A stretch of DNA of 17,711 bases from UHGV virus genome UHGV-0089979; one strand, written 5' to 3'. A model generated the notes under the pieces. That model worked only from the letters and a program-made list of their open reading frames with translations, was not told the origin of the DNA and searched no databases. Shown here in pieces: positions 7,817-17,060 of the stretch (position 1 is its first letter; each line of letters opens with the position of its first letter). Made by a program: the position numbers and the translations under genes. This DNA is from a virus.

Positions 7817-8015
7817 TCACTCAACATCAATAACGGGGAGCTGTTTCGCATAAAACGGTTCCGAAACATCCAAGAACAGTTCTAAAGATATCAGCAGCTA
7901 TATGATCATTTCAAGACCAAATATTGATTCTGCAATTTCGGGACGTTACACTGTTCAGGCACCTTATAAAGCGGGTGCCGGGATTTGCACCCCGGAATTG
8001 CATACGGCGATATAT

Positions 8016-8035
8016 GACGCGCCAGCGTCTTTTTT
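8016..8035 (+). terminator. Rho-independent terminator on the plus strand (GACGC-gcca-GCGTC followed by TTTTTT)
   Basis: Seen directly at 8016-8035; it lies inside the N-terminal part of track ORF 7902-8564, arguing that this part is non-coding. Confidence 0.5.
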
Positions 8036-8201
8036 ATCGTTCATGCTCGCGCACGCCAGAATTATGGTGGGCTGGGCAGGGGAGCCGAAAGGCTCGCCGG
8101 TTTCCGTATGCGCCGGTAGTGCAAACCCTGTTCAGTCCGCCACCAGCGAGATTTGCACCTCCGGTGGTGGAAGTTATCCATTGCATACGGAGGCTGCCAT
8201 C

Positions 8202-8564
8202 ATGGCTACAGTCCCAACTTCCCCATACCTGAAAATTGAAGTTGTCAACGGCAAGGCCGTTATTTTCTCCCTGCATGTTGCCTGCCACTTTAAGCGCATG
8301 CACCAGAACATCGTCGACAAAATCGAGTATCTGAACTGCTCACGCGAGTTTTTTACCCGCAATTTCATACCGGGTACTTATCACATCTACGGTGACTCCC
8401 TGCGTGGTTATTACATCACCCTTGATGGTCTGATGATGCTTCAGCTTGGGTTAAGTCTGCGCACAATGCGGTACTACGAGAGCTGCATTGAAGCATTCCA
8501 TGAGGCTGAGACCAACCTGAATCACACTGTTTTCCGTCGTAATCAATGGGAGGTGCGCCCATGA
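8202..8564 (+). CDS. Hypothetical phage protein (120 aa); possible regulatory or antirepressor-like N-terminal domain
   Basis: Track ORF 7902-8564 trimmed to the ATG at 8202, which is preceded by GGAGG at 8-nt spacing. The upstream part contains a terminator and repeats and has no ribosome-binding site. Function not confidently assigned. Confidence 0.45.
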   Translation: MATVPTSPYLKIEVVNGKAVIFSLHVACHFKRMHQNIVDKIEYLNCSREFFTRNFIPGTYHIYGDSLRGYYITLDGLMMLQLGLSLRTMRYYESCIEAFHEAETNLNHTVFRRNQWEVRP

Positions 8565-12373: not shown

Positions 12374-12616
12374 ATGACTTTTACCCCTGAACAATTACGT
12401 AAACAGGCACAGGAAATGTTGCGACAGGCGGAACAACTGGAAAAAACAGGTGTAACAAAAGATGCCATTCGTCGGGATATGGTGCCAGCGCTCAGGGAAC
12501 TGATGCAGGCAAAACATCGCGCACAAAAAGCAGTGGATGAGCTGGTGGACTGTGTGGCAGAGCTGGAAACCAAAGTTGGAAAGTTTGAAAAACTGGTGCA
12601 GGAGGTACTGCGCTGA
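12374..12616 (+). CDS. Hypothetical small coiled-coil protein (80 aa)
   Basis: ATG at 12374 (the track start at 12359 is a TTG overlapping the helicase stop); its stop overlaps the Q-like start. Confidence 0.5.
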   Translation: MTFTPEQLRKQAQEMLRQAEQLEKTGVTKDAIRRDMVPALRELMQAKHRAQKAVDELVDCVAELETKVGKFEKLVQEVLR

Positions 12617-12963
12617 TGCGTGATATGTACGAAGTTTTAGATCGTTGGGGGGCTTGGGCTGCAGCAGAAAATAGTGGTGTCGACTGGCAGCCGATAGCGG
12701 CTGGTTTCAAGGGGCTTCTACCACACGGTAAAAAGTCACGTCTCCAGTGCGATGATGATGAAGGAATTATGATTGATGGATGTGTGGCCCGGTTGCGGAA
12801 ATATAAACCAGAAGAATATGAGCTGATCATTGCTCACTTTGTTATCGGGATTTCACTCCGTACAATCGCAAAGAAGCGGAAATGCTCGGATGGAACTATT
12901 AGAAAGGAGTTGCAAACTGCACTTGGATTTATTGATGGTATTATGTGTATTCTAAATAGATAA
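12616..12963 (+). CDS. Short antitermination protein Q-like (115 aa), resembling the DLP12 QuuD type
   Basis: MRDMYEVLDRWGAWAA...AAGFKGLL...CDDDEG..DGCVARL...SDGTIRKEL..GFIDG matches my recollection of the roughly 127-aa QuuD family; C-terminal HTH-like segment. Assignment from memory, not a search. Confidence 0.6.
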   Translation: MRDMYEVLDRWGAWAAAENSGVDWQPIAAGFKGLLPHGKKSRLQCDDDEGIMIDGCVARLRKYKPEEYELIIAHFVIGISLRTIAKKRKCSDGTIRKELQTALGFIDGIMCILNR

Positions 12964-12993
12964 AAACAGCCTTGGTCCAGATAATAAAACTTA

Positions 12994-13659
12994 TTATTTT
13001 CTGGACTTTGCTGTTCTCGCACTTTTGTCTTTAGGTGCAAATCCCAATATTACAGCGAAATGTCTTACTTTGTATGGTAATCCAGATTTAGGGTGTTTGT
13101 GGCTAGAGTAAAAGCTCAACTTTTCTCTTGTTTTGCAATCGGATAAATAAAAATCTTCAAAGTCATCTTTTTTAGAGGTTAATGTTTTTTTCCATTTCTC
13201 TACGACATCTAATGCATTGTTGCTTTTCACATAAATTATTAATCCTCCTTGACAATCATCTTCACTTCCTGTGGAGTAACGAGAGCATAATTGATGGAAT
13301 CCTTCCATTAAATAGTCGTATGAGCTATGAATTTTAGCCTCTCCAATCCATGTGTAGTTTTTGAAACTTACAACAATGTCTGAGTGCCCATTTATATAAT
13401 TATCATGACCAGAATCATATCCGAAGCCAATTAGTATATTAATTATTTCTATAGATAAACGGTCTTCTCCATCGTTTTGCATTAAGCTTGCATTTTTTTC
13501 AATCAATCTGATTGTTTTTTCTAAGTCAATATAAAACATTTCAATAAATTTATCGTATGAATTGCATGTAATTCTTCGATAAAGGCGTGCTGCGCTCTCA
13601 TCGAATGACGCTGCGAACTTCAGCGATTCTAACGTAAAATTATTCTGATTATCCATCAT
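12994..13659 (-). CDS. Cassette gene C: hypothetical protein (221 aa from the ATG at 13659) with a PD-(D/E)xK nuclease-like signature
   Basis: The ATG at 13659 overlaps the TGA of gene B (ATGA). Motif string GHSDIVVSF...TWIGEAKIH...HQLCSRY fits the D...ExK core. AT-rich coding sequence. Confidence 0.6.
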   Translation of the reverse strand: MMDNQNNFTLESLKFAASFDESAARLYRRITCNSYDKFIEMFYIDLEKTIRLIEKNASLMQNDGEDRLSIEIINILIGFGYDSGHDNYINGHSDIVVSFKNYTWIGEAKIHSSYDYLMEGFHQLCSRYSTGSEDDCQGGLIIYVKSNNALDVVEKWKKTLTSKKDDFEDFYLSDCKTREKLSFYSSHKHPKSGLPYKVRHFAVILGFAPKDKSARTAKSRK

Positions 13660-14048
13660 TCTAGGCCTTTCCAGAACTCTGATGCATAAAAGTAAATGTA
13701 AACTTTCGACTGCCAATTGAGGACTGGTTTGCCATCGAAATAGAATGTTCCTTCTGAATATATTTTGCTTAACTCATCTTGAGAGATTTCAAAAATGTCA
13801 TCACCATCAATATATTCGTATCCGATTGATAATATTGGTGCTTTTTCTCCAGATAGATAAGTAATTGCCTCGTAAAGGATACTTTGATCAACATTACTGA
13901 CTTTTTGCAAGTTATTGAATGTTATATATTTTAAATTATCCAGATCTTCATTAAGCAGGTAATGATAAATATTCATACATGCAAAACCAACTTTGCTGTC
14001 GGTAGCAAAAGAATGTTGTATGATATCTTTCATTTCCTGCTTATTCAT
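13656..14048 (-). CDS. Cassette gene B: hypothetical protein (130 aa)
   Basis: ATG at 14048 directly follows the TAA of gene A (TAAATG); AT-rich; no recognisable motif. Confidence 0.65.
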   Translation of the reverse strand: MNKQEMKDIIQHSFATDSKVGFACMNIYHYLLNEDLDNLKYITFNNLQKVSNVDQSILYEAITYLSGEKAPILSIGYEYIDGDDIFEISQDELSKIYSEGTFYFDGKPVLNWQSKVYIYFYASEFWKGLE

Positions 14049-15101
14049 TTAGAAAACCTTTGACATCAATAACTCATAATCTGATTTACAAACACACCCT
14101 TCGATTATAACATGATTTATAAATGGTAGCGAGGATGAAATTAAAGAAAAATGTCCGGGTACATGCATTGTTAAAATATTATTGTGTGCTCCATTCCATT
14201 GTTTAGAAATACTAAAGTTATTAGTTTTCCCTCCAATTGCCGCTAAGCCTGCGGCATGATATTTTTCCTTCCTTAAATCATCTTTTCTCTTTCTCATTTT
14301 TTCTTCTTTTACTGAGCCTGTTCCTGTGGCATGCCCAAGTTTTAAAATGGTACCATCGGCAGATTTGTAAAGTTTATCGATAGCAGTAAATATATTTTTT
14401 CTAATGAAGGCGACGTGATATGAATTCTCTTTATGGAAAAGGTACATTAATATTCTGCGATATCTTGTTGATGCGCGCTCCAATTCATTGTGGTTAAGAT
14501 TTGTACACATGTCGATTTCAAATGTTATTTCGCCGGAAACATAGTTAAAAGTAATTGTGTCAAAACATTGGATGTATCTATCTTTTATTCCAATTATTTC
14601 ATCAAAACAATTGAGTTCTTTTTGTGTTGCTGGGCTTAGTGTATTTGTTTCAATTGCACTTCTTTCTTTGAATGGACGAAGATAAGTTGTTGTAATAGTG
14701 ATCGAGTTACCATGTTGAGAGTGGGAGATGCAGACTGGTCTTAATTTTTTGACTTTTTTATGTGTTGCGCTATCTATTGGCAATGGGTAGGTGGCAATGT
14801 ATTCTTGATAATCTTTATCGTTGCTGTTAATCAGATTTAACAAGGTTTTTTTCAAGAGGATTGCGTCAGTGATATTATTCAGTTGAGCAAAAAATACGGC
14901 CCGATTGCTGTAATTCAATTGGCTGAGGTAAATCTCCTTGAGATTATTTATTATATCCTTTTCATTATTACTTGCATAATCAGATAGCAACTCTGTCCAC
15001 CCCCTAGCTGACTTCATATTAAAATACTTTAATTCGCCTTGAAGAAGCCTGAAAGAGATGTTTCTTGCCTGAAGACCAAACAGGTAGTCGTTCGCTTTCA
15101 C
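14049..15101 (-). CDS. Cassette gene A: hypothetical protein (350 aa, GTG start)
   Basis: First gene of the AT-rich leftward operon. The GTG at 15101 is preceded by AAAGG and an in-frame TAA two codons upstream; the first in-frame ATG is at residue 29. No family recognised. Confidence 0.65.
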   Translation of the reverse strand: MKANDYLFGLQARNISFRLLQGELKYFNMKSARGWTELLSDYASNNEKDIINNLKEIYLSQLNYSNRAVFFAQLNNITDAILLKKTLLNLINSNDKDYQEYIATYPLPIDSATHKKVKKLRPVCISHSQHGNSITITTTYLRPFKERSAIETNTLSPATQKELNCFDEIIGIKDRYIQCFDTITFNYVSGEITFEIDMCTNLNHNELERASTRYRRILMYLFHKENSYHVAFIRKNIFTAIDKLYKSADGTILKLGHATGTGSVKEEKMRKRKDDLRKEKYHAAGLAAIGGKTNNFSISKQWNGAHNNILTMHVPGHFSLISSSLPFINHVIIEGCVCKSDYELLMSKVF

Positions 15102-15140
15102 TAGTCGTTACCTTTTACCTTTAGAATTAGAGAAAAGTTA

Positions 15141-15169
15141 AATATACAAAAGAGCTAACGCGTACGCAA
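15141..15169 (-). promoter_or_regulatory. Candidate sigma-70 promoter for the leftward cassette (-35 TTGCGT, 17-nt spacer, -10 TATATT)
   Basis: On the minus strand TATATT lies at 15146-15141 and TTGCGT at 15169-15164 with 17 nt between; the -35 is weak. Confidence 0.3.
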
Positions 15170-15217
15170 AAGTTATTGTAATGTGTTAAGAGTGGTTACT
15201 TTGCCACACAGCTTAAA

Positions 15218-15240
15218 CCCGCGCTGAGCGGTTTTTTTTT
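15218..15240 (+). terminator. Terminator-like element on the plus strand (short GC stem CCGC-gctga-GCGG followed by nine T)
   Basis: Stem 15219-15222 pairs with 15228-15231, followed by T9 at 15232-15240. The stem is short, so strength is uncertain. Confidence 0.45.
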
Positions 15241-15363
15241 GTGCCCGGAAAGCGGCACAGAACATTAAACGCGCTGGTAGTTGTGAATACTGGTCTTTCA
15301 GCTTGCTGGCTTTTTGGACAAGAGTTATTGGTATGTCACGTTAACCGGAAAAGGGAAAAAGGC

Positions 15364-15561
15364 ATGCTAAAACAGCAGGATATGACCGAAACCGCCAGAG
15401 TGGTGTTTAATGAATTAAGCGTCACCGAACCGGCGACCGTCGGGGAAATTGCGCAGAATACTTACCTTTCACGCGAACGCTGCCAGTTAATACTGACTCA
15501 GCTTGTTATGGCGGGTCTGGCAGATTATCAGTTCGGTTGTTACAGACGCCTTCCGCAGTGA
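15364..15561 (+). CDS. Small hypothetical protein (65 aa), winged-helix-like
   Basis: Track ORF 15241-15561 trimmed to the ATG at 15364 (preceded by AAGGGAAAAAGG). The segment EPATVGEIAQNTYLSRERCQLILTQLVMAGLADY looks like a wHTH recognition region. Followed by a strong terminator. Confidence 0.5.
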   Translation: MLKQQDMTETARVVFNELSVTEPATVGEIAQNTYLSRERCQLILTQLVMAGLADYQFGCYRRLPQ

Positions 15562-15570
15562 AGGCTTTTT
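15548..15570 (+). terminator. Rho-independent terminator (GCCTTC-cgcagt-GAAGGC followed by TTTTT) overlapping the stop codon of the small wHTH gene
   Basis: Seen directly: 6-bp perfect stem at 15548-15553 and 15560-15565, then a T5 tract at 15566-15570. Confidence 0.6.
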
Positions 15571-15711: not shown

Positions 15712-16761
15712 ATGATTAATACTGTAAAAATATCCAGTTGTGAGTTAATCAACGCTGATTGCCTGGAGTTTATCCAGACCTTACCGGAAAACTCTGTCGA
15801 TCTGATAGTCACAGACCCGCCATACTTTAAAGTGAAGCCCGAGGGCTGGGATAACCAGTGGGAGGGCGACGATGATTACCTGAAATGGCTGGACCAGTGT
15901 CTGGCGCAGTTCTGGCGGGTACTGAAGCCTGCCGGAAGTCTTTACCTGTTCTGTGGTCATCGCCTGGCATCTGACACCGAAATCATGATGCGTGAGCGCT
16001 TTAATGTGCTGAACCACATTATCTGGGCGAAGCCGTCCGGACGCTGGAACGGGTGCAATAAGGAAAGTCTGCGGGCGTATTTTCCGGCAACAGAGCGCAT
16101 TCTGTTTGCAGAACATTATCAGGGACCGTATCGCCCGAAAGATGATGGCTATGTGGAGCAGGGGCGCGAGCTAAAACAGCACGTCATGGCCCCGCTGATT
16201 TCTTACTTTCGTGATGCGCGTAAATCACTGGGAATAACGTCAAAACAGATAGCGGAAGCCACCGGAAAGAAAAACATGGCTTCGCACTGGTTTGGTGCCA
16301 GTCAGTGGCAGTTACCGAACGAGGGTGATTACAATAAATTGCAGGCGTTGTTTGCGCGTGTTGCGGCAGAAAAACATCAGCGCGGGGAACTGGAAAAGCC
16401 ACACCACCAGCTGGTCAGCACATACAGTGAGCTGAACCGGCAGTATACGGAACTGCTGAGTGAATATAAAAATTTGCGGCGGTATTTCGGTGTGACGGCG
16501 CAGGTTCCGTACACCGATGTCTGGACGCATAAACCGGTGCAGTACTATCCAGGGAAACATCCGTGCGAAAAACCGGCAGAAATGCTGCAGCAGATAATCA
16601 ACGCGAGCAGTCGTCCGGGAGACCTGGTTGCAGATTTTTTTATGGGTTCAGGTTCAACGGTAAAAGCGGCGATGGCACTGGGGCGTTGTGCGATTGGTGT
16701 TGAGCTGGAGACCGGACGTTTTGAACAGACAGTCAGGGAAGTTCAGGATTTAATCGTTTGA
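15712..16761 (+). CDS. DNA methyltransferase, beta-class (N6-adenine or N4-cytosine), 349 aa
   Basis: N-terminal DPPY motif (VDLIVTDPPYF) and C-terminal AdoMet-binding motif (DLVADFFMGSGST), the circularly permuted order of beta-class amino-methyltransferases such as YhdJ. Confidence 0.85.
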   Translation: MINTVKISSCELINADCLEFIQTLPENSVDLIVTDPPYFKVKPEGWDNQWEGDDDYLKWLDQCLAQFWRVLKPAGSLYLFCGHRLASDTEIMMRERFNVLNHIIWAKPSGRWNGCNKESLRAYFPATERILFAEHYQGPYRPKDDGYVEQGRELKQHVMAPLISYFRDARKSLGITSKQIAEATGKKNMASHWFGASQWQLPNEGDYNKLQALFARVAAEKHQRGELEKPHHQLVSTYSELNRQYTELLSEYKNLRRYFGVTAQVPYTDVWTHKPVQYYPGKHPCEKPAEMLQQIINASSRPGDLVADFFMGSGSTVKAAMALGRCAIGVELETGRFEQTVREVQDLIV

Positions 16762-16810: not shown

Positions 16811-16886
16811 GGCCCTTTAGCTCAGTGGTGAGAGCGAGCGACTCATAATCGCCAGGTCGCTGGTTCAAATCCAGCAAGGGCCACCA
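16811..16886 (+). tRNA. tRNA with anticodon CAT, 76 nt including CCA; closely resembles E. coli tRNA-Ile2 (ileX-type, read as Ile after lysidine modification)
   Basis: Cloverleaf built by hand: acceptor stem GGCCCTT/AAGGGCC, anticodon loop CTCATAA (CAT at 16844-16846), T-arm GGTTCAAATCC, 3' CCA. Search tools would probably call it Met. Confidence 0.85.
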
Positions 16887-16893
16887 TCACATA

Positions 16894-16970
16894 CCGCCAT
16901 TAGCTCATCAGGATAGAGCGCCAGCCTTCGAAGCTGGTTGCGCGGGGTTCGAGTCCTCGATGGCGGTCCA
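16894..16970 (+). tRNA. tRNA-Arg, anticodon TCG, 77 nt including CCA
   Basis: Acceptor stem CCGCCAT/ATGGCGG, anticodon stem CCAGC/GCTGG with loop CTTCGAA (TCG at 16928-16930), T-arm CGGGGTTCGAGTCCTCG, 3' CCA. Confidence 0.8.
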
Positions 16971-16983
16971 TTATCTGTACCCT

Positions 16984-17060
16984 GCGTTGTTAGCTCAGCC
17001 GGACAGAGCAATTGCCTTCTAAGCAATCGGTCACTGGTTCGAATCCAGTACAACGCGCCA
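16984..17060 (+). tRNA. tRNA-Arg, anticodon TCT (reads AGA), 77 nt including CCA
   Basis: Acceptor stem GCGTTGT/ACAACGC, anticodon stem ATTGC/GCAAT with loop CTTCTAA (TCT at 17018-17020), T-arm TGGTTCGAATCCAGT, 3' CCA. Confidence 0.85.

Follow-up and report, generated by a model that had tools for sequence, protein, structure and literature searches.

A divergent three-gene operon of the DS-21 family, probably an anti-phage moron, behind the Q gene of a lambdoid prophage

UHGV-0089979 is a virus genome of 17,711 nucleotides (the window, meaning the whole stretch of DNA analyzed here) in which three minus-strand genes, A, B and C, lie between the Q antiterminator gene and a methylase/tRNA module. 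We consider it probable that the three genes form a self-contained anti-phage operon belonging to the DS-21 family, and that it is a moron of a lambdoid prophage, occupying a variable slot that extends from Q to the late promoter. The defense interpretation is supported because the genes are homologous to DS-21 and because of the genomic context in which they are found. An initial annotation of the window had proposed an undescribed defense or exclusion cassette; a horizontally acquired element of the defense type agrees with the DS-21 homology, the neighboring genes and the rarity of the cassette, but it is not undescribed, since DS-21 has been validated and gene B has already been listed as a predicted defense gene.

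Homology to a validated defense system

DS-21 (working name TOXO) is a set of three hypothetical proteins encoded in 2,159 bp that was scored as defensive in the DefensePredictor study (Science 2026; PMC13092281, Table S6). The proteins, WP_001532221.1 (365 amino acids [aa]), WP_021552536.1 (140 aa) and WP_001557682.1 (211 aa), are specified by genes at 9963-8866, 8855-8433 and 8440-7805 in an Escherichia coli ECOR-type strain (GCF_003334085.1). In E. coli MG1655 carrying DS-21 on a low-copy plasmid under its predicted native promoter, the negative logarithm of the efficiency of plating was 4.48 for phage Bas1 (about 3x10^4-fold) and 2.0 for Bas11 (100-fold), and there were weak or plaque-size effects on Bas3, Bas9, Bas67 and T3 (PMC13092281, Table S7). 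Gene B of the window appears in its own right, in Table S10 of that study, as a "Predicted novel defense gene" with a mean log-odds of 6.28.

Hidden Markov models (HMMs) of the A, B and C families, built without the DS-21 proteins, recognize the DS-21 sequences (PMC13092281, Table S8) over essentially their full length: A scores 84.1 bits, with positions 34-347 of the 349-position profile aligned, B scores 118.7 bits and C 192.8 bits. In direct BLASTP comparisons, the window and DS-21 proteins are 20% (A; E 5e-8), 26% (B; E 7e-7) and 35% (C; E 7e-38) identical. Both systems consist of three co-directional, tightly packed genes in equal order, with products of 365, 140 and 211 aa in DS-21 and 350, 130 and 221 aa here; the PD-(D/E)xK residues of C are identical, and none of the three proteins contains a Pfam domain. 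They differ in protein A, in which the subfamily of the window has an invariant GHATGTGSVKEEKMR..DLR.E..H that is reduced to T..S..LR..LR.D.YH in DS-21, and in location, the window copy being prophage-borne and directly after Q. Judged by these sequence comparisons, the prophage moron slot holds a new and divergent member of the DS-21 family, and systems of its kind are already known.

No follow-up work on DS-21 was found in the literature, and PADLOC v2 (2023) does not include it. Literature searches by accession and for "RdgC-like" defense and lambdoid Q hotspots returned no description of this cassette. A modularity-based discovery paper, considered as a relevant source, proved not applicable, as A, B and C are without Pfam domains.

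The initial annotation could name no family for the three proteins, and Pfam, NCBIfam and PADLOC v2 likewise hold none that matches A, B or C, the only matches being to PHROGs of unknown function. Weak matches of B to CARF (E 0.007) and of C to PDC-S54 (E 0.009), and one to SelD (E 0.14), were regarded as noise. The profile searches, PADLOC comparison and structure prediction that the initial annotation had called for thus gave no Pfam, NCBIfam or PADLOC v2 family and yielded folds for A and B. Superinfection exclusion in the classical sense, which had been put forward as an alternative to defense, is rejected, there being no membrane segment in A, B or C.

Architecture of the operon

The three reading frames are intact and all on the minus strand, as seen in both the open reading frame (ORF) list and the sequence. 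Gene A (14049-15101; WP_000646552.1) encodes 350 aa and is read from a GTG start rather than from an internal ATG, because homologues that begin at the same point conserve its first 27 residues. Its stop codon (TAA, 14051-14049) abuts the start codon of gene B (ATG, 14048-14046) to give TAAATG, and gene B (13656-14048; 130 aa; WP_001041173.1) in turn overlaps gene C through the sequence ATGA at 13659-13656, in which the gene C start (ATG, 13659-13657) overlaps the gene B stop (TGA, 13658-13656). Gene C (12994-13659; WP_000969103.1) specifies 221 aa, counted from the first ATG. We propose that A is a sensor or DNA-binding subunit, that B, an acidic winged-helix protein, is an adaptor or regulator, and that C, a predicted PD-(D/E)xK nuclease, is the effector. 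The non-coding region upstream of gene A (15102-15240) presumably holds its promoter and ribosome-binding site on the minus strand. No Rfam RNA family was detected within the cassette.

The G+C content of the block (12994-15101) is 33.7%, against 47.7% for the remaining window and 52% for the downstream DNA. Q (12616-12963; 115 aa, PF06530 type) and all downstream genes, from 15365 onward and including the methylase gene (15712-16761) and the tRNA genes, are on the plus strand, so that Q and gene C are convergent, with 30 bp between them. Q itself lies outside the system and co-travels with it as one module. The same region is present with 100% identity in E. coli UTME-13, where the window corresponds to a prophage integrated beside yecN and a DUF72 gene, and where RefSeq annotates the same three coding sequences as hypothetical proteins. 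In its physical description the initial annotation was accurate: three leftward ORFs of 350, 130 and about 221 aa are borne out by the ORF list, the sequence and RefSeq, the coupled TAAATG and ATGA junctions are exactly as it described them, and the block is AT-rich relative to the flanking genes and antisense to Q and to everything downstream.

Conservation of the trio and its neighbors

The six-frame ORFs of retrieved loci were searched with profiles of A, B and C, with distinct loci counted at 85% identity of C. Among species-representative genomes and encoding contigs, 63 loci (51 of them distinct) contain all of A, B and C and belong to Gamma-, Beta- and Alphaproteobacteria, Cyanobacteria and Bacteroidota; of 51 viral contigs in IMG/VR, 49 have the complete trio and two are truncated. 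Order and strand are constant, the products measure about 350 to 390 aa for A, 130 to 145 aa for B and 206 to 235 aa for C, and overlaps between the genes are usually 1 to 4 nt. These ORFs are more than chance occurrences, because 63 plus 49 independent loci repeat their order, sizes and short overlaps, and A-B-C is a conserved, horizontally mobile operon. One enterobacterial prophage (L095, 8556-9609) has gene A called in two pieces of 79 and 196 aa, which is probably a disrupted copy.

The genomic neighborhood of the trio is supportive of a role in defense, short of statistical proof. In Lysobacter it adjoins OLD-TOPRIM/AAA and UvrD genes (Gabija-like) and HTH/M78 genes; in Serratia, an MmeI-type restriction-modification (RM) system, a DEAD helicase and T5orf172; and in Cedecea, a methylase/DUF4928 pair and an integrase. 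On one metagenome contig (L094), the trio sits in an integrase island adjoining mutS. Among the two genes on either side in the 51 distinct loci, there are strong PADLOC matches to GajB, Drt2, RmrA, PD-T4-6, MADS and MkoC, with further matches to type I, IIG and III RM systems and PDC candidates. Pfam matches in the same neighborhoods include six integrases, two resolvases, PIN, a DarT-associated NADAR, MobA and type IV secretion system proteins.

Protein C is a predicted PD-(D/E)xK nuclease

The initial annotation had noted a nuclease-like signature in the last protein, and this signature is real. Thirteen residues of C (E65, D66, G91, D94, W104, E107, K109, G120, Q123, L124, R127, Y128 and W156) are invariant in all 52 members of the family, and they include a PD-(D/E)xK core composed of E65/D66, D94 and E107-A-K109, plus Q123. 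This pattern of conservation argues that C carries a complete PD-(D/E)xK site under purifying selection. C has no sequence or profile match in PDB and none in Pfam or NCBIfam. Its homologues are rare, forming 35 clusters among 5.8 billion proteins, with relatives in 119 of 185,579 species-representative genomes. In the study describing DS-21, PD-(D/E)XK proteins, among them a modeled DS-21 molecule with a predicted template modeling score (pTM) of 0.82, are reported to align with the EcoRI catalytic core (PMC13092281, Table S9).

Remote similarity also links this nuclease to Lamassu, with DS-21 C having an HHblits match to "LmuA_effector_PDDEXK" (probability 94.7, 55% coverage; PMC13092281, Table S8). 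Lamassu, which comprises an LmuA PD-(D/E)xK or Cap4-type effector, an SMC-like sensor (LmuB) and LmuC, resembles the window system in pairing an effector nuclease with a partner that is not an enzyme and is believed to sense DNA. The window system differs in having neither an SMC/Rad50-like ATPase nor LmuC, and its protein A has no NTPase motif and a fold that is not SMC-like; the PADLOC v2 Lamassu models do not match the window proteins even at E <= 1.

Proteins A and B have RdgC-like and winged-helix folds

The predicted structure of protein A is a tandem TBP-like, or RdgC-like, fold. In structural comparisons it comes closest to RdgC and to "recombination-associated" proteins of phages, with high root-mean-square deviations and low template modeling scores. 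RdgC (PF04381) is a ring-forming, DNA-binding, recombination-associated protein, and the resemblance of A to it is one of fold only: A has an additional N-terminal helical domain and a conserved motif of its own. This motif, DLRxExxHxxG, is the signature of the family, within which H282 is invariant. True homology to RdgC was rejected at the level of sequence, there being no Pfam match at E <= 1 and an hhalign probability of 0.4% against the PF04381 protein of the L095 prophage. Searches of PDB by sequence and profile gave only a chance-level match to Dcp1 (E 0.1), and a word-indexed search recovered 13 homologues of A. Besides the trio, the L095 prophage has genes for a DndB-domain protein and for a true RdgC (PF04381).

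The AlphaFold2 model of protein B has a winged-helix fold, consisting of a three-helix bundle and a beta-hairpin wing. The protein is acidic, the median isoelectric point of the family being 4.7. A word-indexed search for homologues of B returned near-identical copies only, and a full HMMER search was needed to obtain the wider set, which comprises 101 representatives among 1.84 billion proteins.

Domain swaps and the roles of the three proteins

Several loci carry the C or B domain in other combinations. In ten cyanobacterial loci (L033, L039, L045-L047, L050, L054, L055, L059 and L060), the C domain forms the C-terminal part of NACHT plus HEAT-repeat proteins of about 1,000 to 1,200 aa, which are likely a single-protein, NLR-like variant of the defense. 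In a Sphingopyxis metagenome-assembled genome (L086, 6327-10462), a type I HsdR-like helicase ends in a fused B domain (residues 1034-1165), with HsdM upstream, a stand-alone C immediately downstream and no A; this locus resembles a type I RM system to which a B-C effector pair has been added. Another locus (L016) has an extended B and a C without A. Because of these swaps, we view C as the effector, B as the coupler of C to its partner and A as one among several sensor or motor partners that can replace each other. The C-type domain fused to NACHT and HEAT repeats points to a sensor-plus-effector logic shared with NACHT/STAND (NLR-like) defense, from which the window system differs in having no NTPase and in having its sensor (A) and adaptor (B) as separate small proteins.

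The swaps bear on two other readings of the operon. The first is that C acts like a restriction enzyme, cutting incoming DNA directly on recognizing its modification or sequence, as a type IV or methylase-less enzyme, rather than being triggered by a sensor or acting abortively. C is predicted to be an enzyme of the restriction-endonuclease fold, one of its homologues is labeled "Restriction endonuclease" in UniRef, and the type I RM system of Sphingopyxis, which includes HsdM and HsdR, has the B-C pair joined to it. Phages Bas1 to Bas12 of the BASEL collection are T1-like Drexlerviridae. The range of DS-21 is narrow, covering Bas1 and Bas11 (PMC13092281), which is also in keeping with restriction. 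Against this, the operon has no methyltransferase: no methylase belongs to the trio in any of 112 loci, ruling out a cognate methyltransferase there, and the methylase of the window (15712-16761) is part of the conserved prophage backbone, being kept in prophages that lack the cassette. Nor is a specificity or translocase domain detectable in A or B by Pfam or fold comparison. Direct restriction seems unlikely on this evidence, and it would be a sub-variant of the defense reading rather than a true alternative to it.

The second is that the operon is a toxin-antitoxin-like addiction module stabilizing the prophage, in which C is the toxin, B its antitoxin or inhibitor and A an accessory, with any anti-phage effect being secondary. 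B is small and acidic, and its gene is in every case immediately upstream of that of C, usually overlapping it; the nuclease site of C is intact; PIN and antidote genes occur among the neighbors; and B-C pairs without A exist in L016 and L086. However, a 350-aa A protein conserved in 112 loci would be superfluous in a simple two-part toxin-antitoxin system, and plaque assays of DS-21 under its native promoter scored it as defensive (PMC13092281), which together leave addiction a poor candidate for the main function. An antagonism of this sort between C and B is also compatible with defense by abortive infection.

Cargo of a variable slot between Q and the probable late promoter

The cassette is carried by 23 of 5,426 complete E. 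coli genomes. Close relatives of the window prophage retain the helicase gene, the start of Q, a small ORF, the methylase gene and the tRNA genes at about 87 to 96% identity, and in related E. coli prophages the slot holds other cargo: an antisense NYN-domain gene (L088), a GIY-YIG nuclease-family gene (L089), an antisense ompC porin gene (L090) or a WYL-domain gene (L091). The slot between Q and the small ORF/methylase therefore appears to be a hotspot for defense- or exclusion-type cargo, in agreement with the placement of the block by the initial annotation as a moron in the Q-to-lysis interval. The small ORF (15365-15561, plus strand; 65 aa; WP_000917767.1) lies before the methylase gene in all relatives, whatever the cargo, and is followed by a terminator-like hairpin at 15548-15565.

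The comparison with related prophages, which the initial annotation had recommended, also delimits the insert: homology to E. coli prophages without the cassette stops inside Q (12618-12795) and returns at 15154-15184. A transposon-like insertion was considered and rejected, as the insert is not bordered by any noteworthy direct or inverted repeats. In prophages of Enterobacter, Siccibacter and L095, the trio is directly after, and antisense to, a PF06530 Q of 114 to 116 aa and precedes the lysis genes, so that the arrangement is seen in four prophage lineages, including that of E. coli. The Q start codon (12616) is the exact point from which the DNA is similar to that of these prophages (about 68%).

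Beyond gene A, a non-coding element of 73 bp (15144-15216) is 75 to 85% identical to the Enterobacter and Siccibacter prophages, as compared with about 68% for the adjacent coding DNA, and is followed on the plus strand by a hairpin and a run of nine thymines (15219-15240). The region from 15144 to 15240 probably contains pR'/qut and tR' for a PF06530-type Q and the late operon; if so, the cassette would ride between Q and the Q target site. A scan with promoter and terminator consensus sequences yielded nothing above threshold upstream of A and nothing convincing as signals of the cassette itself. The cassette is also present, between Q and stx1A, in seven Stx1a-converting phages (LC5678xx series). 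In these phages, homology to the window stops at 15250, and stx1A lies about 570 bp further on.

This distribution is relevant to another possible function, in which an RdgC-like recombination modulator (A) and a structure-specific nuclease (C) would serve the replication or recombination of the phage itself, not immunity. Many copies of the trio are in prophages, the best structural matches of A are RdgC and its phage counterparts, and PD-(D/E)xK nucleases include resolvases and recombination nucleases. Yet the operon runs antisense to the late operon, apart from the replication and recombination genes of the phage, and is missing from nearly all close relatives of the window prophage; the trio is found in non-phage chromosomal islands beside RM, Gabija and type VI secretion system genes; and A has no sequence relation to RdgC. 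With its homologue DS-21 protecting a phage-free host (PMC13092281), a module of benefit to phage DNA metabolism is very improbable.

Other features of the window

Two small RNAs were recognized by Rfam on the plus strand, the Hfq-binding RNA isrK (7959-8035; 63.7 bits) and C4 antisense RNA (8060-8147; 81.7 bits), both within the 5' part of an "ash family"/antirepressor-like ORF (7902-8564). Their position suggests that this lambdoid prophage may use antisense control of an antirepressor of the P1/P7 immI type. Three tRNA genes follow the methylase gene on the plus strand (16811-17060), one with a CAT anticodon (Met according to ARAGORN, Ile according to PGAP), the others being Arg-TCG and Arg-TCT. 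The RefSeq annotation of UTME-13 has two tRNAs only, the middle Arg-TCG gene (16894-16970) being missing.

Discussion

The reading that best accounts for these observations, that of a self-contained anti-phage operon of the DS-21 family, suggests the following course of events. The operon would be transcribed from its own promoter within 15102-15240, antisense to the late genes; because it would have its own promoter and opposes the phage late genes, it is probably expressed in the lysogen. Protein A may be the sensor, and what it would detect in the infecting phage is most plausibly a DNA structure, a proposal made because A has an RdgC-like fold and because its alternatives elsewhere are HsdR and NACHT proteins. 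B may act as a docking or regulatory adaptor that links the nuclease C to A and restrains it. Infection would then license C to cut DNA, such that either the invader is destroyed or the cell is killed (abortive infection). The sensor position would be exchangeable, being occupied by NACHT and HEAT repeats joined to C in cyanobacteria and by HsdR joined to B in Sphingopyxis.

Several points weigh against this interpretation. The window proteins are only 20 to 35% identical to those of DS-21, and defense by the window variant is inferred from its homologues; moreover, the motif GHATGTGSVKEEKMR of the A subfamily is only partly kept in DS-21 A. No mechanism for DS-21 is given in the study that described it, and a term search of its main text did not find DS-21 by name (PMC13092281). 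Finally, the consensus scan gave no promoter above threshold upstream of A, and many neighbors of the trio elsewhere are housekeeping genes.

A broader proposal, which we offer tentatively and regard as possible rather than likely, is that the DS-21 family embodies an undescribed sensor principle. Protein A would clamp or probe a DNA structure specific to the phage, such as ends or replication and recombination intermediates, and B would dock and license C, with the B-C pair having also been plugged into type I motors and C into NACHT proteins. Situated between Q and pR'/qut, and upstream of stx1 in the Stx1a phages of O145:H28, the cassette would be inherited together with the antitermination module and could affect late or Stx1 transcription convergently.

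The cassette overturns nothing that is known; it adds a divergent, prophage-borne branch to a defense family that has been validated and never dissected. Across this family, the anatomy that emerges is of a C nuclease with a fully conserved site, an acidic winged-helix B that is the putative adaptor and an RdgC-like A with an invariant DLRxExxH, and the NACHT-C and HsdR-B swaps indicate which parts are effector, adaptor and sensor. In this group of prophages, the gap between Q and the late promoter appears to serve as a cargo slot for defense-type genes. In the Stx1a-converting phages of O145:H28, where the cassette is immediately upstream of stx1, its presence is relevant to the competition of Stx phages with other phages and possibly to transcription of the late operon.

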